Below are positions 16,443-61,384 of a stretch of DNA of 64,000 nucleotides, one piece after another (positions within the stretch are counted from its first letter, which is position 1; each line of letters opens with the position of its first letter). Made by a program: the position numbers and the translations under genes. This DNA is from Planctomycetota bacterium (GTDB lineage: Bacteria > Planctomycetota > UBA8742 > UBA2392): positions 113,737 to 177,736 of the forward strand of contig QEVF01000003.1 in NCBI GenBank assembly GCA_003576915.1, read 5' to 3'. The notes beneath the pieces were generated by a model. That model had not been told where the DNA came from. It did not search any database and saw nothing but the letters and a program-made list of their open reading frames with translations.

Positions 16443-17084
16443 ATGCTTTCCACATTCATCTCGGTCAAGACACGGCTGCCTGACCTCTGCACCGAGGTGT
16501 GGAGCTATGCGCTGGAGCTGCGCCGGGGAGGCGACCCCGGCGGCGCCGCGGCCGTCAAGAGCAAGGTCAGCAGCCTGTTTCGGCTGCTGGACAAGCAGGC
16601 CAAGCTGGCGCAGGTCGAGCAGGGGGACCTCCAGCAGGCCAAGTATGCCCTCTGCGCTCAGATCGACGAGATCGTGATGTCATCGGGCTGGCCCTGGCGC
16701 GACAACTTCGCGCCGCTGTGCGTCGAGTATTACGGCGACGCCGCCGCCGGCGAGAACTTCTTCCAGCGCCTCGAGACCTTCCGCCATTCCACGGAGACGC
16801 GCCGCCGCGACCTGCTCGAGGTGTTCTACATCTGCTTAGCCCTCGGTTTTCAGGGCAGGTACTCCGACACCCGGGGTCTCGAGCAGCGCAAGGCCCTCCT
16901 GGACGGCATCAGCCGCGAACTTTGCGGCGAATCCGCGCGCCCCCTTAGCGTGCAGGTGACCTCGCCCGACCCCCTGCCCGGGCCGCGTACCCCGCGCCCA
17001 CTCTGGATCGTACCGGCACTTTGCCTGCTGGCCGTGGGCGCGCTCTATGCCGCGCTGTCCTGGGCCCTGGGAACGACGGCATGA
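16443..17084 (+). CDS. tssL: DotU/TssL-family membrane protein
   Basis: DotU signature region DEIVMSSGWPWRDNFAPLCVEYYG and RRDLLEVFYICLALGFQGRY. C-terminal TM helix LWIVPALCLLAVGALYAAL. Confidence 0.8.
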   Translation: MLSTFISVKTRLPDLCTEVWSYALELRRGGDPGGAAAVKSKVSSLFRLLDKQAKLAQVEQGDLQQAKYALCAQIDEIVMSSGWPWRDNFAPLCVEYYGDAAAGENFFQRLETFRHSTETRRRDLLEVFYICLALGFQGRYSDTRGLEQRKALLDGISRELCGESARPLSVQVTSPDPLPGPRTPRPLWIVPALCLLAVGALYAALSWALGTTA

Positions 17085-20000
17085 ATCTGCGCGCCCTGAT
17101 TTCAGCGTTTATCAAGGAAGGCGGCATCGGACTGGCCGTGATCGTGCTGCTGGTGATGATGGTCTTGGTCGGCGGCGATTACTTCGAGCTTGAGCCCCGC
17201 CTGACGCAGGCGCTGATGGCGGGCATCGTGTTCGCAGGTCTCGCGATTTACGCGGCGAGGCGCATCATGGCCCGCCGCCAGGCGCGCAAACTGACGTCAA
17301 AGTTCATGGAGCTGGCGGCCGAGGACGCCGATGCCACCTTGGGCGAGCGCAAGGCCCGGCAGCAGGAGATTGCGTCTCTGCTTCGTGAGGGCGTGGCCGC
17401 CCTGCGCCTGTCGGAGCAGGGAGAGCAGGCCGTCACCCGCCTTCCGTGGTATCTCGTCATCGGCCCCGCCGGAGCCGGCAAGAGCACACTGCTGGAGGCT
17501 TCCGGCCAGAACTTCGCGCCGCTGGGCCGCGCACGCAGGCCGGTCACCGAGGCCGGCACCACGCGCGACCTGGACTGGTGGGTTGGCGGCCAGGGCGTGT
17601 TTCTGGATGTGCCCGGCCGCTACATCTCAGATGCCAGTGCTCCCTTTGAGTGGCCGGCCTTTGTCAGCGCTTTGAAGGAAACACGTGCCCAGGCGCCGGT
17701 TTCAGGGGTGCTGGTCGTCATACCCCTGCCCGAGATTCTCGCGTTGAAAAACGACGAGTTGGAACCCTGGGCCAAGAACATCCGCGACCGCCTCGATGAA
17801 CTCAGCGGCCAGTGCCGCTGGGTGTTTCCCGTTTATGTGGTCTTCAGCAAGTGTGACTGTGTCAAGGGCTTCGATGCCGCGTTCTCGAATCTGGCGACGG
17901 AGGGGCGCCGGCAGGCTTTTGGCGCCACGCTTCCCTTTGCCATCGACGAGAACCGAAACTACCGCACCATCTTTCATGACGAGTGCAACCGCCTCAGCGA
18001 GCCCCTGCGCCTTCAGGTTCTTGCCTCCCTGGCCCAGGATCTACCCGCAGCGCTCAAGGAAAGCATGGCGCTTTTCCCGCGGCAGTTCTTTCTGGCCCAG
18101 CGCCGCATGGGTGAAGTGCTGGGACCCGTCTTCCGACCCAACCCGTTCATTGAGACGGGCCTGCTGCGCGGCTTCTACTTCACCAGCGCCACCCAGGGCG
18201 GAGCCCTGCATGACCTGGTGTCTGAGCGGGTGGAGCCACGGCCCGTTCCCGTTGAAACGGCGGCGTTTTTCGTGGAGCAGATCTTCGCCGATGTGCTGCC
18301 GCCCGACCGTTTTCTGGCGCGCCTTTCCCTCAAAGAATCGCAGCGCAGACGCGTCCTTTCCACGGCGCTGGCCGCGGCCAGCCTGCTGCTGGCCCTGATG
18401 GTCTCGGCGGGCATGGCCCTTGCCTTCAGCGAGCGCCGCCAGAGCATCGTTTCGCTGGCGCAGGCGCGCGCCCATCCCGACCCCCTTGCGCGCATGGATG
18501 CCCTGCGCGATGCCCTGCTGCAGGCCGAGGGTAACCGCTCGCCTGTCACCCGCATGTTTGTTTTCAGCGGGGACCCCGAGGGCCGCGCCCTGGGCGAGGC
18601 GCGACAGGAATACCATCAGGCCCTGCGCGCCCATGTCATTCAACCCGCGGCTGACACCCTGGCGGCGGAAATCCAGCGCCTGAGGGATCAGCAAGTCCGA
18701 TCCATCGCTGATTACGACCGCATGCTGGCTGCATTTTCGGCCCTGCGTGCCCTTGCCGGCCGCGGCGACCTGAACGCGGAGGCCCTGCGCCCGGAACTTG
18801 AGCGCACCCTGGCATTGCTGGCTCCGCAAGCGGCCACACGCGAGATTCTCTTCCGGCAGTCGGACTATCTGCTGGCGCGGCCGGGAGAGCTGGCTTCCTG
18901 CCGTGCGCAGATCGCAAGCGGCCTGCTGGAGATCGTCGATCGCGAGTTGCGCGGGGCACTCTGGATTGAGGCGGCCTTTGCCGAAGTCCTGCGCGAGGCG
19001 CCCGCTGACCTTCCCGCCGTGAATCTGGAAGACCTTGTCGCTTCTCCCGGCCGCAGTTACCTCGCGCTGGGGCAGCCCGTGCCTGGCCTCTACACCCAGC
19101 GCGGCTACGACACGTACGCGGGGCCCGCCATGGCATCGCGGGCCCGGGAGATTGCGAGGCGCTATGGGGCGCTGGGCGAAAACAGGCCCGCCTGGAGTGT
19201 CGAGGCTTCATTGACAGACTACTACGCCGACGCCTACGCCCGGGCCTGGGATGATGCCCAGGCGTCGTTTGCGGTGGCTGACTTCGCCTCACTGAGCGAC
19301 TGCGCTGCGGGTCTGAAGCACCTGACAGGGCCGGATTCGGCCATGCGCGAGCTCATGGTTTCGCTGCGCGCAGGGCGCACGCTGCTGCTCAAGAACGGGA
19401 CGCAGCGCAACGCCGCCGGCGACGACCTGAAGTGGCTTGATTCCGGGCTGAGTCAGCTCAGGACAGTTCAGACGGCCCTGGAGGCCATGTTGCAGCGCAC
19501 CCATGCGGGTTCCCACCTGATGGAGTACCTGGCCCAGGAAAAATTGGACGCGCTGCTGGATACTCTCAACGGTGTGGCCCGCGGCATGGAGGATGTGGTG
19601 GCGGCGGCGCCCCGCGAGTCTCGCGGCCGCATGGGCGCCGTGCTTTCCGCCCTGCTTGGGGGAGTTATCCGAGAACTGCGCGAGGCGGCACTGGCCGAGG
19701 CCGGCGAAGTCTGGAGGGCAAGCGTGGCTTCGACATGGCGGTTGGACCTCGCGCCTTACTATCCGTTCAACGCCGAGAGCGTAAGCGAGGCCTCCCCTGG
19801 GACGGTTTCGCGCCTGCTCAATCCCAAGAACGGCAACCTGTGGGTGGCCCTGGCCCAAATGGAAAAGCTCCGTGCCAAGGCGGTCAACGGTCGGCCCCTG
19901 CTGGAGTACGGCCCGGAGTTCAGCGCTGCCCTGGAGCGTGCCGCCAGACTGCGTGACCTGCTTTTCGATGGAGGCGAGACGCTGAGCGTGCCCTTCTCGG

Positions 20001-20389
20001 TGGTGTTTGACCGGGGCGAAGGCGTGTCCGATGTGGGCTTCACGCTCGGCGACAAGTCCGTCACCTACACCGACCTGGGCACGAAGGCCGCCGAGTTTGC
20101 CTGGACGGAGTCCATGGCCCCCGGCGTACGCATTCAGGCCCGCGTGGGGCAGTCGCTGTGGCTGACCCGGTCCTACCCTGCGCAGAAGTGGGCGATCGTG
20201 AGGCTCTTCAGCGATGCCAGGCGAACCCCGGTGGGCGAGCAGCGCGTCAAGTGCGCCTGGGTCTTCACGCAGGTGCTGGGGACCCGAAACTTGAGCTTCA
20301 TGGCCTATGCCGAGTTCGAGTTCCGATCCGGGGTGGCCTTTGACCCCGCGCTCTTCACTGAACTCAAGTTGCCCGAGACCATGCGCTAG
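17081..20389 (+). CDS. tssM: IcmF/TssM-family inner-membrane NTPase
   Basis: ATG overlaps the tssL stop (ATGA). N-terminal TM helices, Walker A LVIGPAGAGKSTLLEASG, a third TM helix, then a ~700-aa periplasmic region. Size and topology are typical of TssM. Confidence 0.85.
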   Translation: MNLRALISAFIKEGGIGLAVIVLLVMMVLVGGDYFELEPRLTQALMAGIVFAGLAIYAARRIMARRQARKLTSKFMELAAEDADATLGERKARQQEIASLLREGVAALRLSEQGEQAVTRLPWYLVIGPAGAGKSTLLEASGQNFAPLGRARRPVTEAGTTRDLDWWVGGQGVFLDVPGRYISDASAPFEWPAFVSALKETRAQAPVSGVLVVIPLPEILALKNDELEPWAKNIRDRLDELSGQCRWVFPVYVVFSKCDCVKGFDAAFSNLATEGRRQAFGATLPFAIDENRNYRTIFHDECNRLSEPLRLQVLASLAQDLPAALKESMALFPRQFFLAQRRMGEVLGPVFRPNPFIETGLLRGFYFTSATQGGALHDLVSERVEPRPVPVETAAFFVEQIFADVLPPDRFLARLSLKESQRRRVLSTALAAASLLLALMVSAGMALAFSERRQSIVSLAQARAHPDPLARMDALRDALLQAEGNRSPVTRMFVFSGDPEGRALGEARQEYHQALRAHVIQPAADTLAAEIQRLRDQQVRSIADYDRMLAAFSALRALAGRGDLNAEALRPELERTLALLAPQAATREILFRQSDYLLARPGELASCRAQIASGLLEIVDRELRGALWIEAAFAEVLREAPADLPAVNLEDLVASPGRSYLALGQPVPGLYTQRGYDTYAGPAMASRAREIARRYGALGENRPAWSVEASLTDYYADAYARAWDDAQASFAVADFASLSDCAAGLKHLTGPDSAMRELMVSLRAGRTLLLKNGTQRNAAGDDLKWLDSGLSQLRTVQTALEAMLQRTHAGSHLMEYLAQEKLDALLDTLNGVARGMEDVVAAAPRESRGRMGAVLSALLGGVIRELREAALAEAGEVWRASVASTWRLDLAPYYPFNAESVSEASPGTVSRLLNPKNGNLWVALAQMEKLRAKAVNGRPLLEYGPEFSAALERAARLRDLLFDGGETLSVPFSVVFDRGEGVSDVGFTLGDKSVTYTDLGTKAAEFAWTESMAPGVRIQARVGQSLWLTRSYPAQKWAIVRLFSDARRTPVGEQRVKCAWVFTQVLGTRNLSFMAYAEFEFRSGVAFDPALFTELKLPETMR

Positions 20390-20470
20390 CAGCCTGCTCA
20401 AAATCCCCGGGACCTTTGGAGCAGCGCGGCCTGCTCCGCAAGCCTAGCCTTGCCCGCGAAAGGAGGAACC

Positions 20471-23232: not shown

Positions 23233-26103
23233 TTAGCGCACGCCCTGCAGCAGGCTGAGCACAGCCTGGGGGATGCTGTTGGCCGCCGAGAGCACGCTGG
23301 TGCTGGCCTGGAACAGGATCTGGGCCTTGGTGAACGCGCTGGTTTCGGCCGCGAAGTCCAGGTCGCGGATGAAGCTTTGCGCCCCGGACAGATTCTCCAC
23401 GGCCACACCCACGCTGTTGAGGTTGCGCTGCAGCGTATCGCTGGAGACTGAACCCAGGTAGCTGCGCAGGCCGGTCACCTGGTCGATGGCGCGGTCCACG
23501 ATCTCGAGCGCGTTGGCGGCGTTGGTGCTCAGGTCATTGCCTGCGCCCGTACGCAGCGTGTTCAGAGAGCCGCCGGGATAACCGCCGGCCTCCAGGCTTT
23601 CCGGCGTGATCTTGGCCCCGAGCGTGCCCGTGCTGATCTGACGGATGCCCACCATCAGGCTGTCCACGGCGCTGTTCGTCTCGCGCAGCTGGAAGCGCAT
23701 GCCACTGATGTCCTGCGGGCCGCCGCTGTAGCTCTGGCGCACGGCAAAGCTCACGCTGTCCAGGTAGCCGTTGGGCAGGCGGGACTGCGCGTACTGCGGC
23801 GTCAGCGCCGAGGCACCGCTGATGCTGGCATTCTGGGCAAAACCAAAGCGCGCCGCGTCGTTGCGCGTGCCGGCGCTGCCGGCCGCCCCGAAGCTCTGGG
23901 CGAGCGAGAACTTGACGTCGAGGGGGCCAGTGACGAAGTTGACGTCCCAGCCGCGTCCCTGGAAGGCCATGCCGCTGATGTTGCCTTTCACGTCGCTGCC
24001 CACGGCCTGAATGCGTGAGCCCGCCACGCCCGTGACCGTGTTGGTCGTGCCGGCCAGAGCGCCGAGTCCGCTGCGCCCGTCGCCGGTGGCGGCCAGCCCG
24101 CCCTGAAGGGCCGACTTCAGGCCCACACCCGAGGTCGGCGCCGTGACATCCTCAAGGCTGATGATCTGGTCGGAACCGAATTCCGTGCTGAACAGCGCCA
24201 GGCGCTCGAAGTTGCTGGTGCTGGCGCTGTTGGCGCGGCCGAACACGGCGTGCATGTCCGTATCGGAGCCGACGCTGTCCTCGTTGATGGTGAAGGTGCC
24301 GCCGAAGCGATCCACGATGCTGAGGCCGCCCTTGGCATCGAAGTAGGCCTGATAGCGCGTGCGCAGGTCGTCCTGGCCCACGGCGTCGTTGGAGGCGGCG
24401 TTGAGGGCCGTCTGGATGTCCGAAAGCGTGATGAAGCCTGAGGGGCCCGCCGCCACGCTGATGGTCGAAACGCCGCTGGAATCACGGATCTCGAAGTCGA
24501 GCGTGCCGCCGGACACCACGGCGGGCGGAATGGCCAGCGAGCCGCTGTCGGTCACAAAGCCCTTGGGAACGGCGAAGTTGATGAAGCTGACGGGCTCATC
24601 CTTCGAAGCGCCGGATTCGCCCGTGATGCCAAGCTTGCCAAGGTCGCCCGTGTAGCGCGTAACGTCGCGCGAGCCGTTGAGCGCGGCCTGCGTGACGTCG
24701 TCGTCGCCGCCCTGGTTGGTGATGCCCACCGCGGTGCCCGCGGCGCCCAGGGTGCTGCCCGTCATGTCAATGACGACCAGGTTGCCGTTGGCGTCGGTCT
24801 GTACGGCCGCATTGCCGCCAAAGGCCGCCATGCTGCGCACCGCCGCGACCATGGCCGCGATGTCGGCGGGGTTGTCCACGCCCAGGCCGCCGGTGTTGGC
24901 AAAGGAAAGCTCTTCATCGCCCGCGGTGATGGTGCCGTCGCCGTCCACATCAAAGCCGATGGCCGTGCCGTCGCCGAAGGTGGCCGAAGCCGAGCCGCCC
25001 TCGTTGGCCGTGAACATGGAGGCGATCTGGTCGGCACTGAGGGTGAAGGTGCGTACGTTCTGGGCTCCGCTGAACTTGAAGTTCGAGGCGGCGTTGCGGA
25101 TGACGAGGTCGCCGTCGCGGTTGTAGACCTCGAAGTTGGGATCCACGGCCGTCAGGGCCGCCTGGAGTTCCGCCTCGCTGATGACCGAGTCAGCTCCGCT
25201 GTTGATCACGATGTTCCGCGCGGGAGCCGAGCCCACCTGCAGGTTGAACACCATGTCCTGGCCGTTGCCGTTGAGCTGAATGCCCGAGCCCTTGCCCTTG
25301 AGCACGAACTCGGCCGAGCCGCTGTCCAGCGCCATGGGGCGGTAGCCCGCGGCGTAGACGCCGGTGGCCGAACTGTTCTGGTTGATGGCGGCAATCAGGT
25401 CGCCCACGGTGCTGCCGGCGCCCAACAGCAGGTCTTCGCTGCCCTTGGAGCCGCGCACGCGCAGTGTGACGAAGTCGGCCGCGTTGCCGCCGGGGCGCAC
25501 TTCCGTCAGCGTCTGCGTCGAGTCGAAGGCCTGGTTGGTCACAATCGTGGCGCGCTCGGCCATCTGGCCGATGTTCACGTCGAACTTCTGGACCTCGGCG
25601 CCGGGAGCCAGGCGCACGCTGCGCACGTCGAGTTCGTCAAAGGCGCCGGTCTGAGCCTTTTCCACAAGAAAGGCGCTGTCACCGTTGAGCAGGCCCCGCT
25701 TGCCAAAGCGCGTGCTCTGGGCGATGCGGTCGATGGCGACCAGAGACTGGTTGAGTTTGTCCTGCTCCGCCGCGATCTGCTCGCCGGAGGCAAAGCCCGT
25801 GTTCAGGGCGAACACCACGCTCGAACGCATGTTCACCAGCACATCGCTGATTTCCTGGAGCGCGGCTTCGGCGGTATTGATGATGTTGATGTCGTTCTGG
25901 GTGTTCTCCAGCGCGCGGTTCAGGCTTCCGATCTGGGCGCGCAGCTTTTCGGAGATGACCAGCCCCGAAGGGTCGTCGGAGGCGCGGTTGATGCGCAGGC
26001 CGGTGCTGAGGCGCTCGAGAGACGCCTGTTGCATCTGGTCGTTGCGCTTGAGATTCGTCAGAGCGCTGAGCGAGCTGATATTGTTGTTGACGCGAAGACC
26101 CAT
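23233..26103 (-). CDS. fliC: giant flagellin (~956 aa) with conserved N/C terminal D0/D1 regions and a very large central variable domain
   Basis: N-terminus MGLRVNNNISSLSALTNLKRNDQMQQASLERLSTGLRINRASDDPSG. C-terminus TKAQILFQASTSVLSAANSIPQAVLSLLQ. ATG located at 26101-26103. Confidence 0.85.
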   Translation of the reverse strand: MGLRVNNNISSLSALTNLKRNDQMQQASLERLSTGLRINRASDDPSGLVISEKLRAQIGSLNRALENTQNDINIINTAEAALQEISDVLVNMRSSVVFALNTGFASGEQIAAEQDKLNQSLVAIDRIAQSTRFGKRGLLNGDSAFLVEKAQTGAFDELDVRSVRLAPGAEVQKFDVNIGQMAERATIVTNQAFDSTQTLTEVRPGGNAADFVTLRVRGSKGSEDLLLGAGSTVGDLIAAINQNSSATGVYAAGYRPMALDSGSAEFVLKGKGSGIQLNGNGQDMVFNLQVGSAPARNIVINSGADSVISEAELQAALTAVDPNFEVYNRDGDLVIRNAASNFKFSGAQNVRTFTLSADQIASMFTANEGGSASATFGDGTAIGFDVDGDGTITAGDEELSFANTGGLGVDNPADIAAMVAAVRSMAAFGGNAAVQTDANGNLVVIDMTGSTLGAAGTAVGITNQGGDDDVTQAALNGSRDVTRYTGDLGKLGITGESGASKDEPVSFINFAVPKGFVTDSGSLAIPPAVVSGGTLDFEIRDSSGVSTISVAAGPSGFITLSDIQTALNAASNDAVGQDDLRTRYQAYFDAKGGLSIVDRFGGTFTINEDSVGSDTDMHAVFGRANSASTSNFERLALFSTEFGSDQIISLEDVTAPTSGVGLKSALQGGLAATGDGRSGLGALAGTTNTVTGVAGSRIQAVGSDVKGNISGMAFQGRGWDVNFVTGPLDVKFSLAQSFGAAGSAGTRNDAARFGFAQNASISGASALTPQYAQSRLPNGYLDSVSFAVRQSYSGGPQDISGMRFQLRETNSAVDSLMVGIRQISTGTLGAKITPESLEAGGYPGGSLNTLRTGAGNDLSTNAANALEIVDRAIDQVTGLRSYLGSVSSDTLQRNLNSVGVAVENLSGAQSFIRDLDFAAETSAFTKAQILFQASTSVLSAANSIPQAVLSLLQGVR

Positions 26104-26197
26104 GACATCCTCCGTGATGGTCGGGCAGAAGCCCAAAATGGGCAGGCATCCGTGCCTGCCTCTGAGCCCGCAACGCGGGCGCAGCATGACGTGTCTG

Positions 26198-27736: not shown

Positions 27737-29008
27737 ATGTTCTCCAGGAACATCTGGCTGTTCCTGCTGGCCGCGCTTTTGATGGGCATCGGGCGCCAGA
27801 TTTTCCAGGTGCTGCGCAACCAGTATCTCAACGCGCTGCAACTCAGCGGCAGCGACCTCACCAGCGTGCAGGGCCTCAACTCCCTGGGCACGCTGGTGAT
27901 TGCCCTGCCCGCCATCGTCATCATCGGCCGACGTTCGGCGCGCTCCCTGCTGGCCGTTGTCGCGTTGGTCAACGCGGGGGCCTACGCCGCGCAGGCCCTG
28001 TTCGGCAATCTGGATTTATTCCGTGCTTCGGCCTTCTGCGCGGGCCTGGCCATGGGACTGAACGTGGCCCTCGGCGCGCCCTTTCTGGTGCGCAACACGG
28101 GGCTGTCCGAGCGGGTTTTCGCCTTCTCCATCCAGAGCGCCGTGAGCTGGCCGCTTTCGGGATTCGTGGGCAGTTGGCTTTCGGGATGGCTTCAGAGTTC
28201 AGCGCAGGCCTGGGCCGGCCAGGGCGTACGCTTCATGGGCGAGACCGTGGCTCCCGATCTGTTCGGCTATCGTTTTGCGCTGCTGGTCGGCGCGGCCATC
28301 GTGCTGCTGGGGCTTGTGCCGGTGGCCTTCATCCGCGAGGACAAGCCTGAAGGCGCCGGCAAGAGCATCAAGGCTTTGCTCACGGTCCATAATCGCGGGC
28401 GCCTGTTTCTGCTGGGTCTGCCGGAGATGATCATCGGCTTTGGCGCGGGCCTGACCGTGCCCTTCTTCAACGTCTACTTTCAGAACGAGTGGAGTCTGGG
28501 GCCCCGCGAAATCGCGCCCATCTTCTCCCTCATGTTTCTGGTGCTGGTGGTGAGCTACCTGCTGGCGCCGCCCCTGATCAAGCGATTTGGACCCGTCAAA
28601 GTCATTCTTCTGAGCCAGGTCCTGAGTCTGCCGTTCTTTGTCGAGCTGGCCCTGGGCAACTTCCTGTGGGCGGCCATCGTCGCCTTCATCATGCGCCAGA
28701 CTCTCATGAACCTCAGCGACCCCGTCTATCGCCAGTTTGCGCAGGAGGTGGCAGACCCCCGCGACCGCAATTCCGTGGCCGTGGTCGTGCATACGTCGCG
28801 CCAGCTTTTCTTCGTCGTGGCCAACTTCGCCAGCGGCTACCTGATCGATGCCGCCGGCGGGCGCTTCACCTGGGTCATTGTCACCACCATCGGGCTCTAT
28901 GTCGTGGCCATTGCCTCGGAGCTGATCATCCTGCCGCGTCTGGACCGGGCGCGGCGCTACAACACCCTGGCGCTGGAGCGCAGGCAGGCCGTCGCGCCCG
29001 AGGGCTGA
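27737..29008 (+). CDS. MFS transporter
   Basis: About 12 predicted TM helices with MFS-like loop motifs. Start at ATG 27737 (MFSRNIW...). Confidence 0.7.
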   Translation: MFSRNIWLFLLAALLMGIGRQIFQVLRNQYLNALQLSGSDLTSVQGLNSLGTLVIALPAIVIIGRRSARSLLAVVALVNAGAYAAQALFGNLDLFRASAFCAGLAMGLNVALGAPFLVRNTGLSERVFAFSIQSAVSWPLSGFVGSWLSGWLQSSAQAWAGQGVRFMGETVAPDLFGYRFALLVGAAIVLLGLVPVAFIREDKPEGAGKSIKALLTVHNRGRLFLLGLPEMIIGFGAGLTVPFFNVYFQNEWSLGPREIAPIFSLMFLVLVVSYLLAPPLIKRFGPVKVILLSQVLSLPFFVELALGNFLWAAIVAFIMRQTLMNLSDPVYRQFAQEVADPRDRNSVAVVVHTSRQLFFVVANFASGYLIDAAGGRFTWVIVTTIGLYVVAIASELIILPRLDRARRYNTLALERRQAVAPEG

Positions 29009-29144
29009 GTGGCTTGTTGCCCCGGTGAAGCCCCTTTATGATGGCGCCAGTGGGTTGTCCGAGCCGCCCCATGAACATGGGCAGGGGCGCCTCGGACTCC
29101 TCATGGGCCGCGAATCGTAGTCGCGCTTGCATGAAGGAGGCGTT

Positions 29145-29966
29145 GTGTCTGATGCCATGTCCGGGTCTGATGGATCCTTGCAGTCGGTGCCGGACGCCGG
29201 AGCGTTCAACGGCAGCGACGCCGAGCGCATGGAGCGATGCTCGCGCGTGCTGGGGTTCAGGCTCACCAACTTCGAGAATCTCCGCATTGCGCTGACGCAT
29301 TCCAGCGCCAAATCCGACGACAACCCCAGCAACGAGCGCATGGAGTTTCTGGGCGACGCCGTGCTGGGCCTGATCGTCAGTGAAAAGCTGTTCCGCGAAC
29401 ATCCCGATTACCCTGAGGGTGAGCTGACCCGCGTCAAGAGCGTGGCCGTTTCCCGCGAAGTTCTGGCCCAGCGCTGCCGCGAGCTTGGCCTTCATGAACT
29501 GATGTATCTCGGCAAGGGCATACGCCGCGACGGCCGCGCCAAGCTGCCCGTCAGCGTGCTGGCCAACCTGTATGAATCCGTGCTCTGCGCGTTGTACATG
29601 GAAGGGGGGCTGGGGGCTGCCCGCGAGTTTGTCGAGCGCGACCTGGGGCCCGTGATCCGCAGCGTGACCTCTCACCAGTTTCAGCAGAACTACAAGAGCG
29701 CCCTGCAGCACCTGGTGCAGGGCCACAACGAACGCGCGCCCATCTATCGCGTGCAGGGCGAGTTTGGCCCTGATCACTCCAAGGAGTTCCACGTGATGGT
29801 GAAAATCGGCGAGCGTGCGTTTGGCCCCGGCATTGGCCGCAACAAGAAGGAAGCCGAGCAGCGGGCCGCCAAGATCGCCCTGGCCGAGCTTCTGGCCCAG
29901 TGGGAGACCTTCGAAGAGGGTGATGACCTGCTGGACATTCCCACGGAATTTGAGGACGACGAATAG
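29145..29966 (+). CDS. rnc: ribonuclease III
   Basis: GTG at 29145 lies 4 nt after GAAGGAGG. Signature ERMEFLGDAVLGLIVSEKLF. C-terminal dsRBD (KSALQHL...GPDHSKEFHV...NKKEAEQRAAKIAL). Acidic tail. Confidence 0.9.
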   Translation: MSDAMSGSDGSLQSVPDAGAFNGSDAERMERCSRVLGFRLTNFENLRIALTHSSAKSDDNPSNERMEFLGDAVLGLIVSEKLFREHPDYPEGELTRVKSVAVSREVLAQRCRELGLHELMYLGKGIRRDGRAKLPVSVLANLYESVLCALYMEGGLGAAREFVERDLGPVIRSVTSHQFQQNYKSALQHLVQGHNERAPIYRVQGEFGPDHSKEFHVMVKIGERAFGPGIGRNKKEAEQRAAKIALAELLAQWETFEEGDDLLDIPTEFEDDE

Positions 29967-30002
29967 CCGTCAGGCCTTCGAAGGAACAGGAACTCAGGCT
30001 CA

Positions 30003-30674
30003 ATGGCGCCGCCGCCCACCTGGATCAATCTCTGGCTGGCCGACCTTTATGGTTTGGCTTGCCACGGCCTGTTCGGGGGCCTGGCCGGCCTCCTTGCGGC
30101 CTCAATGCTCTGCCTCGCCAGCGGTCTTTACCCCTGGTTTGACAACGACGTGTTGGCCTTGGGCCTCATGGGCCTGATGCTGGCTTTGCCCCTGGCCTGC
30201 GCTCTGGGTGCCGGACAGCCGGCGCGGGCCGCGGCAACCCGGGCCCTGGCCGCGGGTCTGGCGCTTTCACTGGTTCTCTCAGGCGTGGGGGGGCACTTCG
30301 CTGTCACGGCCTCCTGGTTCTGCGCGGCATCGCTGCTGGGGGCCGCCCTTGCGTCAGCGGCGCCTGCCGCGGGCGCTGTCGGCTGCGCCCTATGGCTGAT
30401 GCTCGGCGCGTTGCCATTCTTCTATCACAGGCTCGCCGGCGCGCCCCTGGGCGCCTCTCTGGAGGCCTGGGCCTCGCAGGGTTGCCCGTGGCTCGGCTTT
30501 GCCCAGGCGGCGCACACCCCCGACCCGCTGCGCAAGACCCTGCTCTACTTCGGACACTGGACCCCCCTGTCAGGCGCGCCGGCACAGGGCTTCCTCACGG
30601 CCCTTGAACTCTGGCTGATGGGTCTGCTGGCTTGGGGCGCAGCGCTGGCGCGCCCGCGCCATGCCGGGAGCTGA
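30003..30674 (+). CDS. Ala/Leu-rich polytopic membrane protein (hypothetical)
   Basis: Several hydrophobic helices. Its stop TGA lies 1 nt before the next ATG (TGAcATG), implying coupling to the CARF gene. Confidence 0.4.
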   Translation: MAPPPTWINLWLADLYGLACHGLFGGLAGLLAASMLCLASGLYPWFDNDVLALGLMGLMLALPLACALGAGQPARAAATRALAAGLALSLVLSGVGGHFAVTASWFCAASLLGAALASAAPAAGAVGCALWLMLGALPFFYHRLAGAPLGASLEAWASQGCPWLGFAQAAHTPDPLRKTLLYFGHWTPLSGAPAQGFLTALELWLMGLLAWGAALARPRHAGS

Positions 30675-30675
30675 C

Positions 30676-31185
30676 ATGCGCGTACTCGTCTCCTGGACGG
30701 GCAGCCGGCGCGAGCCCTACATGTTCCGGGGCGGCGTGCTCAGCGCGGGCACCCATCTGCAGGTGCTGCGCGACTCGCAGTTCGCCGGAACTTTTCAGCA
30801 TCATTATCTTCTCTCGGTGCCCGAGACTCTTGAAGATGCCGAGGCCATCGTGCGTGAATTGGCTTCGCTGGGCGCTCCCTGCCCCACAGACATTCTTTGC
30901 GTGCCCCTGGCCGACCCGACAGACCACGACCAGATTGCGGCGGCCCTGGCCCGCGCCCTGAAAGAAATTCACCGGACCCACCCCCTGCTCAAGAACGAAC
31001 TTTGGGTGCTGCTCAACACCGGAACACCTCAGATGCAGAGCGTGTGGCTGCTTCTGACAGCGCAGGGGGTGATTGCGGCGCGCCTGATCCAGAGCAGCCC
31101 GCCCTCGCTGGCGCGGGCCAGCGGCAGTGAGCCGGTGCGCGAGTTTGCGCCGGACCTGGAGGCCTGGCGGCGCCTGTTCGATTGA
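30676..31185 (+). CDS. standalone RtcR-type CARF domain protein (no AAA+/HTH output domain)
   Basis: GGGAG SD before ATG. Sequence VLLNTGTPQMQSVWLLLTAQGVIAARLIQSSPP matches my recollection of the E. coli RtcR N-terminal domain (ITTGTHVAQICWFLLAEARYLPARLIQSSPP). The protein ends about where the RtcR linker begins. Confidence 0.6.
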   Translation: MRVLVSWTGSRREPYMFRGGVLSAGTHLQVLRDSQFAGTFQHHYLLSVPETLEDAEAIVRELASLGAPCPTDILCVPLADPTDHDQIAAALARALKEIHRTHPLLKNELWVLLNTGTPQMQSVWLLLTAQGVIAARLIQSSPPSLARASGSEPVREFAPDLEAWRRLFD

Positions 31186-31373
31186 ATGGCGTTTGACTTT
31201 TGGCGGTAATCCCTGTTAGTTCAAGGGGCGCAGCCCAAGCAGATGGCGGAACAGGGCTTTTTCAGCAGTCTGCCCGGCCCGCGCAGTTGCACGGGCCGGC
31301 GGATTGACGGGCTTTGCCCGGCAATCCGGACTGTGCTTTCCGCTGGAAAGGTCAGCCTTTGGACTTTCTCAGC

Positions 31374-31513
31374 GGCCTGCAAACGCAAGCCATGGATGGC
31401 TTGCGCAGTTCAGGCGGCTGAAGAGCCGCTTGAGATGCAGGTCAGGACGAATTCATTTCGGCCTGACCGGGATGAAAAGGTGGCTGGATGCCACTTTTTC
31501 AACACCCTGCTAG
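31374..31513 (+). ncRNA. structured RNA-like element, copy A (leader of the dynamin-like gene)
   Basis: About 75% nt identity to an inverted copy at 40594-40732. Hairpin 1: cgcaagcc-atggat-ggcttgcg. Hairpin 2: ggtcagg...cctgacc. Hairpin 3: aaaaGGTGGC-tggat-GCCACttttt, ending 20 nt before the RBS and ATG of the dynamin-like gene. Confidence 0.45.
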
Positions 31514-31522
31514 GAACAGGAC

Positions 31523-33358
31523 ATGGCGGGCGCCTCACCCAATACGCTGACTCAAAGGCTGGATGAAAAGATCGCCGCCGGCCTGACGGAGGAGCGGCAC
31601 CTGCTCAACGATCTGCGTGACCTGCTCATCAAGCAGGATTTCGCCGAACAGATCGTCGACCAGACCACGAGCCTCAAGGACCACCTCGAGGAGCTGTTTC
31701 TGCTGGTCATCGTCGGCGAGGTGAAGGCCGGCAAGTCGAGCTTCATCAACACCCTGCTCAACGCGGACGTGTGCAAGGTGGGCGCCATTCCCACCACGGA
31801 CAAGATCCACATCCTCAAGCACGGCGACATCGAGCGCGAGAAAATCCACGAGGAGTTCCTCGTCGAGCGCCAGCTTCCCTTTGAGGCGCTGCGGAACATC
31901 AACATCGTTGATACGCCCGGCACGAATTCCATTGTCAAGCGCCACGGCGAAATCACGGAAAGCTTCATCCCCCGCTGCGACCTCGTGCTGTTCACCACCA
32001 GCGTGGACCGCCCCTTCAGCGAGACCGAGAAGGAGTTTCTCTCCCTGATCGTCAGCAACTGGTCGAAGAAGATACTCTTCATCCTGACCAAAAAGGACAT
32101 CAAGGAACCCCACGAGCTGGATGAGATACGCAAGTTCGTGATGGAGCAGATGAAGAAGTTCTTCGACCTCGAACCTCTGCTGTTCATCGTCAGCGCCAAG
32201 GAGGCGCGCAAGGCCAAACAAAGCGGCGACAACGCCCTCTATGAAACCAGCGGCTTCAAGGCGCTCGAGGATTACCTGTTCAAGACCCTGAGCGAGGGCG
32301 ACAAGCTCAGGCTCAAGCTGGAGAGCCCCATCGATTCCAGCGTGGCGATCTGCGACCAGGTGATCGCCGAATTTGACCGCCGCCTGGAGGGGCTGCGCGA
32401 CGACCGCAAGGTGCTCGAAAACATCCGCTCGCAGCTTGACCAGAGCGAGACAGACCTCAAGGAGAACTACGGCCGCTTCATCCTCGAGATCGACAATGTC
32501 ATCTACGAGATGGAACGCCGCGGCCGCAACTGGATCGACGATACGGTCAAGATTACCAACCTGGGCATCCTGCGCTCGGCCGAGCGGTTCAGGGCGCGGT
32601 TCAAGGATGAAGTCGTCAAGGACTACGAGGTCAAGATTGACGACGTGCTCAACAAGGCCGTCGACTGGTTCATGAAGAAGTACCTCAAGGTCTGGCAGGA
32701 CACGACCGAGTACTTCGCCGATCAGGCGGCCAAGCGGCCCCACGAAGGCATGGTCGGCAAAGTGGGCGCGAAGTTCGAGTACAACCGCGAGCGCATTTAC
32801 GACATGGTGCGCGCCAACGCCAAAGACCAGATCAAGAACTTCGACTACGACGACCAGGTGCGTCACTTCCTGTCGCGGGCCGGCATGGGCATCAACGCCG
32901 CCTTTGGCGGAACGCTCATCGGCGTCGGCGGCGCCGTGGCGGTCATCGCCCTGACGACCGCCGCGGGCTTCACCGTCGTGGACATCACCGGCATCGTGGC
33001 GGGCCTGACGGCGATTACCGGCGGCCTCCTGGTGCTGCCCATGCAGCGCCGCAGGATCCGCCAGCAGTTTTCCGACAAAGTGCTCGAACTCAAGGCCGGC
33101 CTCACCAAAGTGCTGCAGGAGCAGATACAGAAAGAGGCCCGCGACGCCATCGAGAAGATCCGCGAGTCCTTCGGCCCTTTCTTCGACTACGTCAAGCGCA
33201 CCAGCGGCGCCGTGGAAGAGTCCCGCAACAAGGTGCGGCAGATCCGCGAGGGCTTCCTCGATCTCAAGCGCCGCTTTGGCCGGACTCTTGAGGAAGAGGG
33301 CAAGGCCCTCGCCGCGCCACAGGCGCCTCAGCCTCAGCCGCCGGCGCCGCCGTCATAA
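31523..33358 (+). CDS. bacterial dynamin-like GTPase (BDLP family)
   Basis: G1 GEVKAGKSSFINTLL, G2 PTTD, G3 DTPG. C-terminal hydrophobic membrane-paddle segment GGTLIGVGGAVAVIALTTAAGFTVVDITGIVAGL. Confidence 0.85.
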   Translation: MAGASPNTLTQRLDEKIAAGLTEERHLLNDLRDLLIKQDFAEQIVDQTTSLKDHLEELFLLVIVGEVKAGKSSFINTLLNADVCKVGAIPTTDKIHILKHGDIEREKIHEEFLVERQLPFEALRNINIVDTPGTNSIVKRHGEITESFIPRCDLVLFTTSVDRPFSETEKEFLSLIVSNWSKKILFILTKKDIKEPHELDEIRKFVMEQMKKFFDLEPLLFIVSAKEARKAKQSGDNALYETSGFKALEDYLFKTLSEGDKLRLKLESPIDSSVAICDQVIAEFDRRLEGLRDDRKVLENIRSQLDQSETDLKENYGRFILEIDNVIYEMERRGRNWIDDTVKITNLGILRSAERFRARFKDEVVKDYEVKIDDVLNKAVDWFMKKYLKVWQDTTEYFADQAAKRPHEGMVGKVGAKFEYNRERIYDMVRANAKDQIKNFDYDDQVRHFLSRAGMGINAAFGGTLIGVGGAVAVIALTTAAGFTVVDITGIVAGLTAITGGLLVLPMQRRRIRQQFSDKVLELKAGLTKVLQEQIQKEARDAIEKIRESFGPFFDYVKRTSGAVEESRNKVRQIREGFLDLKRRFGRTLEEEGKALAAPQAPQPQPPAPPS

Positions 33359-39626: not shown

Positions 39627-39947
39627 ATGCCCGACGACACACCGACCCAGCGGCAGGAGGACGACACGGAGTTCGAATCGGAGCTGCCGACAGTGGTGGC
39701 GCCGAAAGTGGCCCTCGTGTTTCATGACGACCCCGAAACTCCGGCGGACTTTGTGCTGCACCTGCTCGAGCGCTTCTGCGGCCAGGACGAAACTCGGGCG
39801 CGCGAGATCGTCAAGCGCCTGGCGGAGAAGGGCCAGGCTGTGGCCGGAGAATTCAATCAGGCCGTAGGACGCATCAAGCTCGGTCAGGTGCAGGAGGCCG
39901 CCCGGGGCAAGTATCCCTTCCAGGCGACTCTCGAACCGCTGGATTAG
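39627..39947 (+). CDS. clpS: ATP-dependent Clp protease adaptor ClpS (paralog 1)
   Basis: ClpS core VALVFHDDPETPADFVLHLLERFCGQDETRAREIVKRLAEKGQAV. Confidence 0.85.
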   Translation: MPDDTPTQRQEDDTEFESELPTVVAPKVALVFHDDPETPADFVLHLLERFCGQDETRAREIVKRLAEKGQAVAGEFNQAVGRIKLGQVQEAARGKYPFQATLEPLD

Positions 39948-39949
39948 CC

Positions 39950-40267
39950 ATGCCCGGCACCGCCCCGCTTCCCACGCGCAAAAAGGAGAGCGAGTCTGAC
40001 CAGGACGCCCGCAAGGCGCCCCTTTGGAAGGTCATCTTCCATAACGACGACAAGACCACGATGAACTTCGTGATCTACGTGCTGATGCAGTTTTTCGGAC
40101 ACAGCCTCGAACGCGCCACTGAAATCATGCTTGACGTTCACAAGTCCGGGCAGGGCATCGCAGGTGTCTATCCCCGCGAGGTGGCAGAACTCAAGCAGGA
40201 ACAAACCGTTTCAGCGGCGCGCGGCCAGAAGTTCCCCCTGGTTGTGACCATCGAAGCCGACGAATGA
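39950..40267 (+). CDS. clpS: ATP-dependent Clp protease adaptor ClpS (paralog 2)
   Basis: WKVIFHNDDKTTMNFVIYVLMQFFGHSLERATEIMLDVHKSGQGI. It starts 2 nt after the paralog-1 stop. Confidence 0.85.
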   Translation: MPGTAPLPTRKKESESDQDARKAPLWKVIFHNDDKTTMNFVIYVLMQFFGHSLERATEIMLDVHKSGQGIAGVYPREVAELKQEQTVSAARGQKFPLVVTIEADE

Positions 40268-40593: not shown

Positions 40594-40732
40594 CAGCAGG
40601 TCGTTGAAAAAGTGGCGTCCGGCCACTTTTTCAACCCGATTGGGCCGAAGCAAATCCGGCCCGACCTTCATTTCAATGGGTCTTTCAGCCGCCTGACATG
40701 CGCAAGGCATCCATGGCTTGCGTGAGCAGGCC
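40594..40732 (-). ncRNA. structured RNA-like element, copy B (inverted copy, 17 nt downstream of the RDD gene stop)
   Basis: Homologous to 31374-31513. Hairpin 3 is a perfect GAAAAAGTGGC-cggac-GCCACTTTTTC. Hairpin 2 uses gggccg/cggccc where copy A uses ggtcagg/cctgacc, which are compensatory changes. Confidence 0.45.
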
Positions 40733-40748
40733 CTATTTTAACGGCCTG

Positions 40749-41570
40749 CTAGCGGGCCGTCACTTTGCGGAACCACCCTGCCAACCGAAGTAGCCAGATC
40801 AGGAGGTGTACCGCGATCACGACAATCAAGAGTCCTGCCCCGCTGAACACGATCATCGCGAAGCGGGCAAACCCCTCCCACGACTTCCTGTTGATGCGCT
40901 GCTGTGCCGACTCGTCCGGTGGCGTGTTCACATACTCCAGCAGGCCTTTGTCGAGGTGCGTGGTGTTCAACGCGTAAGTGCCGGAGACTCTGTCGTGCCA
41001 GCCGCGGCGGTGTCGGTTCCATAGCATGCTGAGGGGGCCAAGCCCCAAGGCAACAATGCCCAGGCCCAGGGCCCAGTAGCGGCCCCGCGCCATGCCCATC
41101 GAGGGGCGTGCGAGAGTTCGCCGCACAACCTTGAATCCCGCAAAGTGCATACCCCAGGTCTGGCCTTGAAGGCCGAGCATTCCCGCGAAATAGAGGTCGT
41201 AGATCACTATCTGCACAATCTTGTGGGCCAGTTTCGTGTATGTTGCGTTGAAGCCCAGTACGCTTTCCTCCTGGCCCGGCAGTCCGCCGAGAAGCCAGGC
41301 CAGGAACAAAGCAGCTGGCATGACCACGATGCAGTCCAGGCAAAACGCCAGCAAACGGCGTGTCGGACCGGCAAAGGCCTCCCTCGGATAATTTTCAGCA
41401 TCGGTGAGGTGAGGATGCGAAGAGGCAAACGCCTTGCCGACGGCAACGAGTTCCTGATGCCGCCGCTCTCGGTTCATGTCCGCTGCGTCGTACTCAGGGG
41501 TGACACCGGCCGGTGCGGGCGACGCGTGTTGCCCGGTAGCTTCGGACGCAGACTCGCGGTGGTAGGCCAC
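40749..41570 (-). CDS. RDD-family membrane protein
   Basis: RRGWHDRVSGTYAL motif and TM helices. Start uncertain (alternative internal Met). Confidence 0.65.
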   Translation of the reverse strand: MAYHRESASEATGQHASPAPAGVTPEYDAADMNRERRHQELVAVGKAFASSHPHLTDAENYPREAFAGPTRRLLAFCLDCIVVMPAALFLAWLLGGLPGQEESVLGFNATYTKLAHKIVQIVIYDLYFAGMLGLQGQTWGMHFAGFKVVRRTLARPSMGMARGRYWALGLGIVALGLGPLSMLWNRHRRGWHDRVSGTYALNTTHLDKGLLEYVNTPPDESAQQRINRKSWEGFARFAMIVFSGAGLLIVVIAVHLLIWLLRLAGWFRKVTAR

Positions 41571-44386: not shown

Positions 44387-47300
44387 ATGCCCACGACAAG
44401 AGCGTGTTTGCTGAGTTTCGCGTTTGGGCTCATGGCGGTGCTGCTTGCGGGCTGCGGTCCGGGGTTGCTGGCACTGGCAGGCGGCTCCGGCGGCGGCATC
44501 TTTGCGTTTGCGGGCAACAAGAAGGACAAGGATGGCGGGCCCGCTCCCTCTACCAACTCTCCGCCCGTGGTGGTGATCAACTCCCTGACCCGCGAAGATG
44601 CGCCCGCGAGCATCAACTACACGTTGATCGACGCCAACTCCGACCTGTGCAGTGTGCAGGTGACCTGGTCGCGCGACGGCATCAACTTTTTTCCGTGTAC
44701 CCAGGGCGTGGGCGGTGACCCGGTGACGTTCCTGAACTCCGGTCCCAGTGGGTCAGCCAAGGTGTTCAAGTGGGACTATGAAATTGACCTGCTGACCACG
44801 GAGCTGGAGACGGGTCTGCACATCGCCATTGTGGCCAACGACGGGGCGGGCCCCGGGCCGGTGGCATCCCTCGGCGGGCTGGTGGCGGGCAATGATGCCC
44901 CCGTGGTGAACCAGACGACTTCACCGCAATCGCCGGATGTTCTGGTCACGGGCAGTCTGGTGCTGGTGACGTTCAATATCCGCGATTCCAGCGCAGACGT
45001 GGCGGGCATGGTCGTCGCCTTCACGCTGGATCAGGGTCAGACCTTTACGGAACTTGCGACGGGCGATTTCGTCGGCACTCCGCCCACGGCGTTGCTGACC
45101 ACGCCCCTGGGCGCTGCGGGCCAGTTCATCTGGAATTCGAGTGTGGCCCTGCCGGGCTTTGCGGGCTCGGATGTCTATCTGGCGTTGATTCCCGTGGATC
45201 GGCCTTCGGGCTGGACGGACTTCACGGTAGGCGACCCGGTGTTCGTGGGCCCCATCACGCTCAATAACGTCCAGAACGGGCCGCCGGAGCTGACGCTGGT
45301 TTCCAGCGTGGCCGGCGATTCCTTTGTCGGCAAGGTGCCCCTGCAATTCACATTAAGCGACAGCGGCAGCGACAGTGCTGAAGTCGCCGTGGAATACACC
45401 ATCGACGGAACCAACTGGCTGCCCGCGCGCCTCACAGGCCAGGCCACGACGCAGCCGGCGGGTCCCTTTGTCTGCTCGCCCAATCCGCGCCTTTACTCGC
45501 TGGAGTGGAATGGACTGGCGGACCTGGCAGCCCAGGGTGCCAAGAACGTGGAGTTGCGACTGACGCCCGTGGAGCTGGGGTCTTCGCCCGCCGTCTACGG
45601 CACCACGATTTACACGGGCACGTTCAGCTTTGCGGACAACGAGGCGCCGGAGGTCAGCGACTTCGAGGTGTACCAGAATTCCGGCAACATCTCCGTGCGC
45701 ATCCAGATCAAGGACAGCAGCAGCGACGAAGTCTCCTGCGCCATTACGGCGACCTGGAACGGCGGCTCCAGCAGCGTGATACTGAGCAATTCTGATTTCG
45801 TCGTGGGCAACCTGGGCCAGATGAGCTCTGGAGTGTCCGGAGAGGACAACATCCTGATCTGGAACTCCAACATCGCCCTGCCCCTGACCAACGCTGCAGA
45901 CGTCGTCTGGGAGATCACGCCCACGGATAACCCCCAGGGTTTCCCCGCGGCGGCCCTGCCGGGCCCCACCTACTTCTCGGCCAGCTTTTCCGTGATCAAC
46001 AACCCCGCAGCCGCGACGCCGGCGGGCATCACGCTCGTGGAGGACAACGGCCGCGTCACGGTGAATGTCTCGCAGACGCGCAACTTCACAGCCACCATCC
46101 TGCCTGCGGCGGCCGCCGACCACACCGTAACCTGGGACATCGTGGAGGGCGGCGGCAACGGCAGCATTGTGCCCGTTTCCAGCCCCCTGCAGGGCCCGCA
46201 AACGGCGCTTTACACGGCCCCGGCGACACTGGCCCTGAGCAACCCGAATTTCTGCACGGTGCGAGCCACCAGCACCGTGACCGGAGCCGTCACGGCCACG
46301 TGGCGGCTGTACTGGGGCGATGCCCCGAGCAGCGTGAACGTGACGCCAACGCCCGTCGATGTCGTGGCCGGCCTCACCCAGCAGTTCACTGCCTCGGTGG
46401 CACCCGCAGGCGCCCCGCAGCAGGTCAACTGGTCTGTGGTGGGCGGGTCAGCCAACGGCACCATCACCCAGGGCGGACTATACACGGCGCCTACCACACT
46501 GCCGGCGGTCAAACAGATCAACGTGCGTGCCACAAGTGTTGATGGCGCGGTTTTCGGATCGGCGGTGGTCAATCTCAAACCCAGCCCCGTCTCGCTGCTG
46601 GTGACGGAGAGCGTAGGCTCCAGTCAGGGTCCCTCGCAGGTGACGCTGGGGCAAAGCCTCAGCCTGATGGCGACCGTCAACCCGCCGGACGCACCCCAAC
46701 AGGTCTACTGGACCATCGACTGGAACGGCGTGAACCAGGGTTCGGGCAATTCCACAGTGGGATTCGTCAATGCCTCGGGCCTCTATTCTTCGCCCTCGGC
46801 CTTGCCCTCGCCCAGTCAGGTTTTCGTACGGGCGCGCAGCCAGGTGGTTTCCAGTGTGACTGACGACTACCAGATCAACCTTGTGGCCCCGCCGCCCACC
46901 AGCTTCCAGGTGTCGCCCGCTACGGCCATCGTCACGGCGGGCGGCGCCGGCGTTGACTTTGATGCAGTCAACTTCGTGCCGGCCAACGCCAACCAATCCG
47001 TAATCTGGACCATCAACCCGGTCTTCGGAAGCATTGACAGCGCTTCGGGCGTCTATACGCCGCCCCCGAGCGCGGCATCCAGCCAGAACGTCACGGTCAC
47101 GGCCACGAGTTCCGTGGCAGGAACCGTTACTGCCACCGCCGTTGTGACCGTCAACCCCAGCACGGGAACTTTGCCCAGCAGCCTGACCATCTCGCCCAAT
47201 GAAGGGCGAACTTTCGTGCAGGGCCGCGTCCTGATTTTCACGGCCACGGTGCTGCCCGCCGGCGCCTCCCAATCCGTCAACTGGTCGGTGGTAAGCGGAG

Positions 47301-49405: not shown

Positions 49406-49408
49406 GGC

Positions 49409-59315: not shown

Positions 59316-59383
59316 CTCTGGCACGGAGCCTGCTTCTGCATCGGCAAGACGCGCCCCCGGGGCGCCAACCAGTGAGGCACAGC

Positions 59384-61372: not shown

Positions 61373-61384
61373 GAAGGAATCGTC

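Follow-up and report, generated by a model that had tools for sequence, protein, structure and literature searches.

The central question raised by this locus is what kind of element occurs in it twice. An initial annotation of the window (the whole stretch of 64,000 nucleotides analysed here, with a G+C content of 65%) described a sequence of about 140 nt present in inverted orientation as copy A (31374-31513, + strand) and copy B (40594-40732, - strand), and interpreted it as a structured RNA, in the case of copy A possibly an attenuator or riboswitch-like leader of a dynamin-like gene. The two copies are, indeed, real: blastn aligns them without gaps over 138 nt (E-value 3e-32), and the similarity claimed for them stands, although the measured identity is 80.4% and not about 75% as estimated. 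The shared ends, GGCCTGC..CGCAAGCCATGGATG at the start and GCCACTTTTTCAAC..CCTGCT at the end, were likewise recognised correctly. As to the nature of the element, we consider it likely that it belongs to a new low-copy, MITE-like family of non-autonomous repeats from an uncultured lineage of Planctomycetota; to our knowledge, hardly any mobile repeats have been described from uncultured Planctomycetota.

Within the 64-kb window, A and B are the only full copies detected by blastn and by the covariance model R1 run with filters off, which scores A at 163.5 bits, the core of B at 130.7 bits and the next best candidate at 33 bits. The Rfam comparison advised in the initial annotation, run over the whole window, gave nothing at the gathering threshold and nothing significant under permissive settings, the best sub-threshold match being TD-2 (25.2 bits against a threshold of 48.7), and the element matches no Rfam family. 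Two further copies, C and D, were found in other genomes.

31374..31511, + strand: copy A, core and 3' terminus, without the 5' inverted repeat (R1 163.5 bits).
40595..40750, - strand: copy B, complete from AGCAGG to CCTGCT at 156 nt (inverted repeats matching at 17/24 positions; core scored at 130.7 bits by R1).
L006:5109-5246: copy C, behind moaA in a Planctomycetota MAG (Bin_91R), found with the hairpin-1 22-mer.
L049:4569-4705: copy D, on a metagenome contig, with a GHMP kinase gene on one side and a gene for a PQQ/FG-GAP propeller on the other.

Copy C comes from a search of species-representative genomes for exact matches to the 22-mer of hairpin 1 (the hairpins are described further on), which pointed to one relevant genome, the Bin_91R MAG, with a single exact match there. 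Matches to the same 22-mer in Idiomarina, Nocardia and a third bacterium were rejected as copies, only the palindrome being held in common. The exact 22-nt palindrome, CGCAAGCCATGGATGGCTTGCG, lies in those organisms at L003:7289-7486, L004:1478-1499 and L005:5100-5437, and at L003 and L005 it forms part of different hairpin-rich units, repeated locally, that otherwise have nothing in common with the element. Copy D was retrieved by scanning metagenomes with the hairpin-4 pattern GAAAANGTGGCNNNNNGCCACTTTTTC, which proved too generic: among the matches listed, a true copy occurred in one of 120 stretches (L049), the remainder being ordinary terminators from gut metagenomes. Copies A, C and D are mutually 88-89% identical and B is 80-84% identical to the others; copies residing in different genomes are 83-89% identical, and the element is the sole similarity between the loci of C and D and the window. 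The family is thus known so far from four full copies and two ORF shadows (P0122 and P0124, discussed with the coding potential). Its copy number is apparently low, with two copies in 64 kb and one exact pattern match in Bin_91R, and a search of viral contigs, plasmids and phages for the element returned no match.

The element is longer than originally delimited. Copies B, C and D reach 18-20 nt further in the 5' direction, and their full unit of about 156 nt, running from AGCAGG to CCTGCT, is bounded by terminal inverted repeats AGCAGGYCGTTGAAAAA. When the 5' end (AGCAGGCCGTTAAAATAGGGCC) is set against the reverse complement of the 3' end (AGCAGGTCGTTGAAAAAGTGGC), 17, 15 and 17 of 24 positions match in B, C and D, respectively, the best of 20,000 random window pairs serving as a control reaching 15/22. 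Imperfect inverted repeats of about 17 nt are present in B, C and D, and in these three copies similarity halts exactly at the ends of the element. The 3' inverted repeat includes the 3' arm of the last hairpin (hairpin 4), together with the T-run of this hairpin. The repeats in the window and the flanks of all four copies are as follows.

31490..31511, + strand: 3' inverted repeat of copy A, GCCACTTTTTCAACACCCTGCT.
40595..40616, - strand: 3' inverted repeat of copy B, GCCACTTTTTCAACGACCTGCT.
40726..40750, - strand: hairpin 0 and 5' inverted repeat of copy B, AGCAGGCC-GTTAAAATAG-GGCCTGC.
40749..40751, - strand: TAG stop of the RDD-family gene, cgcTAGCAGG, a CTAG site overlapping the 5' end of copy B.
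Flanks of copy A: 5' none (no 5' inverted repeat), 3' TA.
Flanks of copy B: 5' TA, 3' TG.
Flanks of copy C: 5' GA, 3' TT.
Flanks of copy D: 5' TA, 3' TA.

TA is thus found at four of the seven flanks that can be read, and at least three of the four 3' flanks begin with T. In the window, TA is 2.7-fold under-represented and CTAG occurs eight times against about 205 occurrences expected from base composition, a 25-fold depletion; two of these eight sites coincide with junctions of the element. Half of the eight sites overlap either the ends of long ORFs or element junctions. Once the 5' repeat is included, copy B starts inside the TAG stop codon of the RDD-family gene (40751-40749), and its earlier placement 17 nt past that stop has to be abandoned. 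In copy D, the TAG stop of the GHMP kinase gene overlaps the 5' end of the element in the same manner (TAGCAGG).

Bacterial MITEs are 70-300 bp long, possess inverted repeats of 15-30 bp and have no coding capacity (PMC3733652). The element agrees with this description in being about 156 nt long and non-coding and in carrying inverted repeats of 15-30 bp (A being without the 5' repeat), and one of its sites is polymorphic. As to dispersal, two copies and two candidate relics lie in 64 kb, and single copies at unrelated loci in other assemblies. As regards target-site duplication, TA stands at the flanks just listed, but the sole pair of filled and empty sites exhibits a repeat of CCTGC and not a duplication of TA. 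The initial annotation had listed a match to a REP/MITE-type repeat as a result that would tell against its RNA interpretation; such a match is obtained in kind, owing to the terminal inverted repeats, the TA flanks and the presence/absence polymorphism, while no named family is matched.

The potential of the element to fold is considerable. The folding energy is -78.9 kcal/mol for A (z = -10) and -59.5 kcal/mol for B (z = -3.8), both relative to dinucleotide shuffles. Three conserved hairpins had been reported, and all three hold, but their total was too low: the core has four consecutive hairpins, the one with the arms CAGGCGGCT/AGCCGCTTG having been overlooked because it is decayed in B. 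A fifth, 5' hairpin (hairpin 0, GCAGGCC-N10-GGCCTGC) occurs in the full-length copies and lies outside the earlier coordinates for B. In copy A, the core hairpins are these.

31385..31404, + strand: hairpin 1, GCAAGCCA/TGGCTTGC, from the minimum-energy fold; 90.6% of cells paired over the four copies.
31405..31438, + strand: hairpin 2, CAGGCGGCT-GAAG-AGCCGCTTG, extended outwards by 3 bp; decayed in B.
31440..31468, + strand: hairpin 3, GGTCAGG.CGAA/TTCG.CCTGACC, which holds the sole compensatory pair.
31473..31501, + strand: hairpin 4, TGAAAAGGTGGC-TGGAT-GCCACTTTTTCA, terminator-like; 100% of cells paired over the four copies.

Hairpin 4 had been said to look like a terminator, and it does: its GTGGC/GCCAC core, followed by TTTTT, is flanked by runs of A and T on opposite arms. 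The T-run pairs with the upstream A-run, and in A a simple terminator scan picked out the antisense reading alone. Judging from this architecture, hairpin 4 and its T-run would probably terminate transcription where the element is co-transcribed.

Over the four copies together, 91.7% of cells fall in pairs, the reference structure being derived from A. The compensatory changes invoked in the initial annotation in favour of an RNA, however, come down to one of 51 pairs (in hairpin 3, A-T in A where the other three copies have G-C), which is not significant with four sequences, as 129 of 500 shuffles do as well. Other measures point to constraint, namely that paired columns are less variable than unpaired ones (Fisher p 0.02-0.04), that cells with G-U pairs possible only in the sense strand outnumber A-C cells by 12 to 3, and that the sense fold is stabler than the antisense one in A, C and D, the reverse being true of B. 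The evidence for a selected fold is modest.

These measures form part of the case for functional structured RNAs, a family either of paralogous small RNAs or of elements in 3'-UTRs, whose sense fold would be under selection and whose mobility would be incidental or ancient. The terminator-like hairpin 4 would suit such a family, and all four full copies lie directly behind, and in sense orientation to, the upstream gene (not significant at n = 4), which, together with the 83-89% identity between genomes, also fits a selected RNA function. Yet the single compensatory pair carries no significance, hairpin 2 has decayed in B, which moreover folds better in antisense, no promoter is conserved (the TAAAAT that precedes B has no counterpart in C or D), no Rfam family matches, the site of A is empty in the closest relatives, and inverted repeats with TA/CTAG flanks would be unexpected for an RNA gene. 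We therefore regard a functional RNA family as unlikely. A combination of both views, in which a transposon-derived five-hairpin RNA has been domesticated as a mobile terminator or 3'-UTR module, is likewise unlikely: kept at low copy number and under purifying selection on the sense fold, such a module would pass from one planctomycete genome to another, settle on TAG stop codons and provide termination, mRNA stabilisation or a 3'-UTR small RNA.

Could the element, instead, encode a peptide? In A, B and C, a single frame (MACAVQAAEEPLEM...) stays open throughout, with an ATG in it, and gene callers sometimes take an ORF from the element (180 aa in L139 and L144; also P0121, P0122 and P0124). 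Nonetheless, substitutions are distributed 13/6/10 by codon position, without an excess at the third position, and a 1-nt deletion in copy D shifts the frame, and therefore there is no conserved peptide, just as the initial annotation had argued. The ORF ends vary (57, 180 and 102 aa) and the open frames have no Pfam match, all of which makes a short conserved peptide gene extremely improbable. When the open frame was used as a query against 1.84 billion representative proteins with HMMER, three ORF shadows were recovered: the 180-aa ORF of copy B itself, P0122 and P0124. The last of these (RIK63765.1), a 180-aa "hypothetical protein" from a Planctomycetota MAG, runs from the element into a C-terminal fragment of urocanase (Pfam E-value 7e-35), and is probably a spurious call across an element located next to or inside a disrupted hutU gene. 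Six-frame and one-frame profiles run against a word-indexed protein database found none, even though copy-B ORFs exist there. Annotators should thus be aware that ORFs of 102-180 aa starting from the internal ATG of the element are spurious.

The genes around the two copies in the window differ. Copy A lies between a gene for a CARF-like protein (30661-31185) and the dynamin-family GTPase gene, the start codon of which is at 31523. An RDD-family gene precedes copy B, which occupies the gap between this gene and two tandem ClpS genes convergent with it. Among named relatives, those closest to the dynamin-family protein all carry the label "MAG: Planctomycetes/Planctomycetota bacterium". At 28926-33358, the gene for RNase III (named from the syntenic L130) is followed by a gene for a 223-aa protein, the gene for the CARF/RtcR-like protein of 174 aa and that for the dynamin-family GTPase, a set that could be a signalling or defence-type cluster; its order is kept in relatives with 98% identity of the dynamin protein and is not kept at 89% or less. 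The tandem ClpS adaptor genes (39627-40267; 106 and 105 aa) are adjacent to two tandem genes for EamA transporters. Elsewhere in the window there are genes for type VI secretion (DotU, IcmF-like) and flagellar genes (FlgI, FlgN, FlgK and a flagellin that, at 984 aa, is unusually long) at 16443-20389, 23233-26187 and 59303-63349, and two giant adjacent genes at 44387-53986, coding for a Kelch/Big_2 repeat protein of 1672 aa and for a 1525-aa protein combining a Ser/Thr kinase with an FGE-sulfatase.

The site of copy A is polymorphic. In three independent assemblies (L130, L131 and L133) of a lineage with a dynamin protein 98% identical to that of the window, the gene order (RNase III, the 223-aa gene, the CARF-like gene, dynamin) is unchanged and the intergenic region is nearly identical, but the allele is empty. 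It reads ...CTCAGCGGCCTGCTAGGAACAGGACATGG, and the window has an additional 130 nt located between two CCTGC repeats.

31381..31510, + strand: polymorphic segment of 130 nt, from the alignment with L130, L131 and L133; the junction slides over the 5-nt repeat.
31376..31380, + strand: left CCTGC of the bracketing direct repeat, present as a single copy in the empty allele.
31506..31510, + strand: right CCTGC, the end of the element, followed by TA (31511-31512) within a CTAG site.

This polymorphism bears directly on the proposal that A is a cis-regulatory leader, i.e. a riboswitch or an attenuator, of the dynamin-like GTPase gene. The location of A would be suitable: its final CCTGC ends at 31510, 12 nt ahead of the ATG at 31523 (the 20 nt to the ribosome-binding site and ATG given in the initial annotation does not hold), an RBS-like sequence, GGAACAGGA, follows directly 3' of the copy, and a terminator-like hairpin is contained within it. 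However, the 130 nt are precisely missing from the same intergenic region in the strains with 98% identical dynamin, and no element is found at dynamin orthologues of 89, 88, 85, 78 and 74% protein identity, the upstream regions of which are unrelated; searches of about 85 kb around these orthologues (74-89% identity) also found the element absent. As the A site varies in presence and absence between close strains, A is not a conserved regulatory leader. A function tied to a specific gene is not supported in general, as the copies adjoin unrelated genes, the neighbours of the copies other than A being RDD, moaA, GHMP kinase and a urocanase fragment. With no Rfam match either, the leader interpretation is very improbable.

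The same pair of alleles can be read in other ways. The A polymorphism is explained equally well if the sister lineage lost the segment by a deletion between the CCTGC repeats as if the window gained it by insertion, and relatives beyond that lineage are too diverged at the site to decide between gain and loss. Copy B, for its part, was found at 99-100% identity in every close strain sampled; the ClpS look-ups directed at the B site returned strains that are all at least 99% identical, none of them from the lineage with 98% identical dynamin.

The CCTGC repeat is also what recommends a derivative of the IS200/IS605 type, that is, a non-autonomous, palindrome-associated element, possibly carrying a guide-RNA scaffold, with a Y1 transposase mobilising it in single-stranded form and inserting it 3' of CCTGC without duplication. 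One CCTGC bracketing the A polymorphism would then be the target and the other the end of the element; CCTGC stands at both positions in all copies, hairpins are located near both ends, and the A locus resembles head-to-tail units that each end in YCTGC. A gene for an IS200-like Y1 transposase is, moreover, situated at L129:13786-14295, 1.8 kb from the dynamin orthologue with 74% identity, but this 22-kb locus contains no copy of the element. A single transposase dimer of IS608 normally binds similar hairpins, whereas here hairpins 1 and 4, those at the ends, do not resemble one another; the significant terminal inverted repeats of B, C and D are atypical of the family, and Rfam gave no match of the IS605 or HEARO type. 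We thus hold this alternative to be quite improbable.

The vicinity of copy A and one other place in the window harbour sequences that resemble the element more distantly.

31228..31380, + strand: candidate decayed older copy, present also in the empty allele (R1 20.7 bits, E-value 0.0016; tentative).
20386..20458, + strand: candidate relic of the 5' part of the element, CTAGCAGCCTGCT ... GGCCTGCTCCGCAAGCCTAGCCTTGC (tentative).

The intergenic DNA at 31228-31380 is itself hairpin-rich. Its alignment to the element, weak but running from end to end, scores 43 against 24 +/- 4.3 for shuffles, the best shuffle reaching 49. It ends with TTTCTCAGCGGCCTGC and TA (31365-31380), resembling the 3' terminus of the element, and a second terminus-like motif, CTTTTTCAGCAGTCTGC, is found at 31256-31272; for the two motifs, the matches amount to 16/17 and 15/16, the latter being the value for the terminus at 31365-31380. 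Going by this resemblance, the segment is probably an older, decayed copy of the element. The possible relic at 20386-20458 extends from the TAG stop of the IcmF-like gene to a point before the RBS of the next gene, and scores 31 when aligned to B, against 15.3 +/- 2.3 for shuffles (best shuffle 24, z about 6.8). As a separate observation, four independent short-read assemblies from Logan (L001, L002, L152 and L153) all start at 31475, inside hairpin 4 of A, and several contigs (L140, L141, L143 and L145) end inside copy B; such recurrent assembly breaks at A and B hint at more near-identical copies or strain variants. The inverted arrangement of A and B, 9 kb apart, does not reflect a composite transposon bounded by them, an option we rejected because A has no inverted repeat on its outer side and because the lineage without A has the same genes downstream of dynamin.

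Under the MITE-like explanation, which we prefer, the element would be moved in trans by a transposase encoded elsewhere and acting on the inverted repeats of about 17 nt; among 40 ORFs of the window, none was found to encode a transposase. Insertion would take place at TA, with a preference for CTAG, a target that presumably points to a transposase of the IS630/Tc1-mariner type, or possibly of the IS427 group of IS5. In this GC-rich, CTAG-depleted genome, TAG stop codons would supply most of such sites, which would explain why the copies are found directly behind genes. Copy A may be a rearranged copy: a full copy would have landed at a TA beside the older relic, and the resulting palindrome, ...GGCCTGC TA GCAGGCC..., would have been resolved by slippage between the two GGCCTGC repeats, with the loss of the 5' repeat of A. 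Given that the sole filled/empty pair involves the 5-nt CCTGC and that A is without its 5' repeat, no clean transposition has been seen. When co-transcribed with the upstream gene, a copy may fold, and hairpin 4 with its T-run may terminate the transcript or stabilise its 3' end; copy A would in this way insulate the dynamin-like gene from upstream transcription.

The practical value of the family is that the polymorphism at the A site makes it a marker of strain-level variation. Its presence would further account for the assembly breaks that recur at A and B. It would also illustrate what a TA/CTAG-targeting element does in a genome that avoids CTAG: it is found on stop codons and behind genes, where its hairpins can alter the ends of transcripts. 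No new regulatory principle is opened by the element.

Comparison with families of small repeats known from other bacteria helps to place it. The strongest resemblance is to RUP and Correia elements, both for the probable TA target and for the structured RNA that co-transcription would yield (PMC2229807). REP/BIME sequences, which are mobilised by RAYT, are similarly extragenic palindromes behind genes for which termination and mRNA stabilisation have been proposed (PMC3733652). They consist, however, of single hairpins of 20-40 bp with a GTAG or CGTC tag and occur in high copy, in contrast to the tagless element of 156 nt with inverted repeats (PMC3733652). A scan of the 64-kb window for solo hairpin 0 as a repeated target found none beyond chance except that of B itself, and this result, together with the 156-nt unit and its five different hairpins, rules out REP/BIME as the identity of the element. 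Palindrome-associated elements of the IS200/IS605 group share with it a short length, the absence of coding capacity, hairpins near the ends and insertion beside a fixed short sequence (here CCTGC, at one polymorphic site), but they differ in having similar hairpins at both ends and no terminal inverted repeats.

Correia elements are accompanied by a TA duplication. In addition, Correia/NEMIS repeats of Neisseria are comparable in their length of 100-155 bp, their inverted repeats, their co-transcription with genes and the effect of their RNA hairpins on the fate of mRNA (PMC2229807). Their inverted repeats nevertheless form one long hairpin that is cut by RNase III, whereas the element folds into five local hairpins and, unlike Correia, has a terminator-like hairpin within its 3' inverted repeat; there is no sequence similarity between the two. 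The ERIC/IRU sequences of enterobacteria are structured intergenic repeats of about 127 bp that are co-transcribed and influence the stability of the upstream mRNA depending on their orientation (PMC2229807), and the transcripts of Correia and ERIC alike are known to affect neighbouring mRNAs (PMC2229807). ERIC, however, is a single long imperfect palindrome, with a different sequence and from a different phylum.

RUP, the repeat unit of pneumococcus, is a MITE linked to IS630-Spn1 and to TA targets (PMC2229807). It differs from the element in its unrelated sequence, in occurring in about 108 copies per genome and in having repeats that match a known IS, the element being apparently low-copy, hosted by Planctomycetota and without a parent IS found. 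At the same time, RUP resembles the element in being a non-coding, intergenic sequence of about 100-160 bp with terminal inverted repeats and TA-containing targets (PMC2229807), and the TA/CTAG flanks of the element point to the same kind of transposase as that of RUP.
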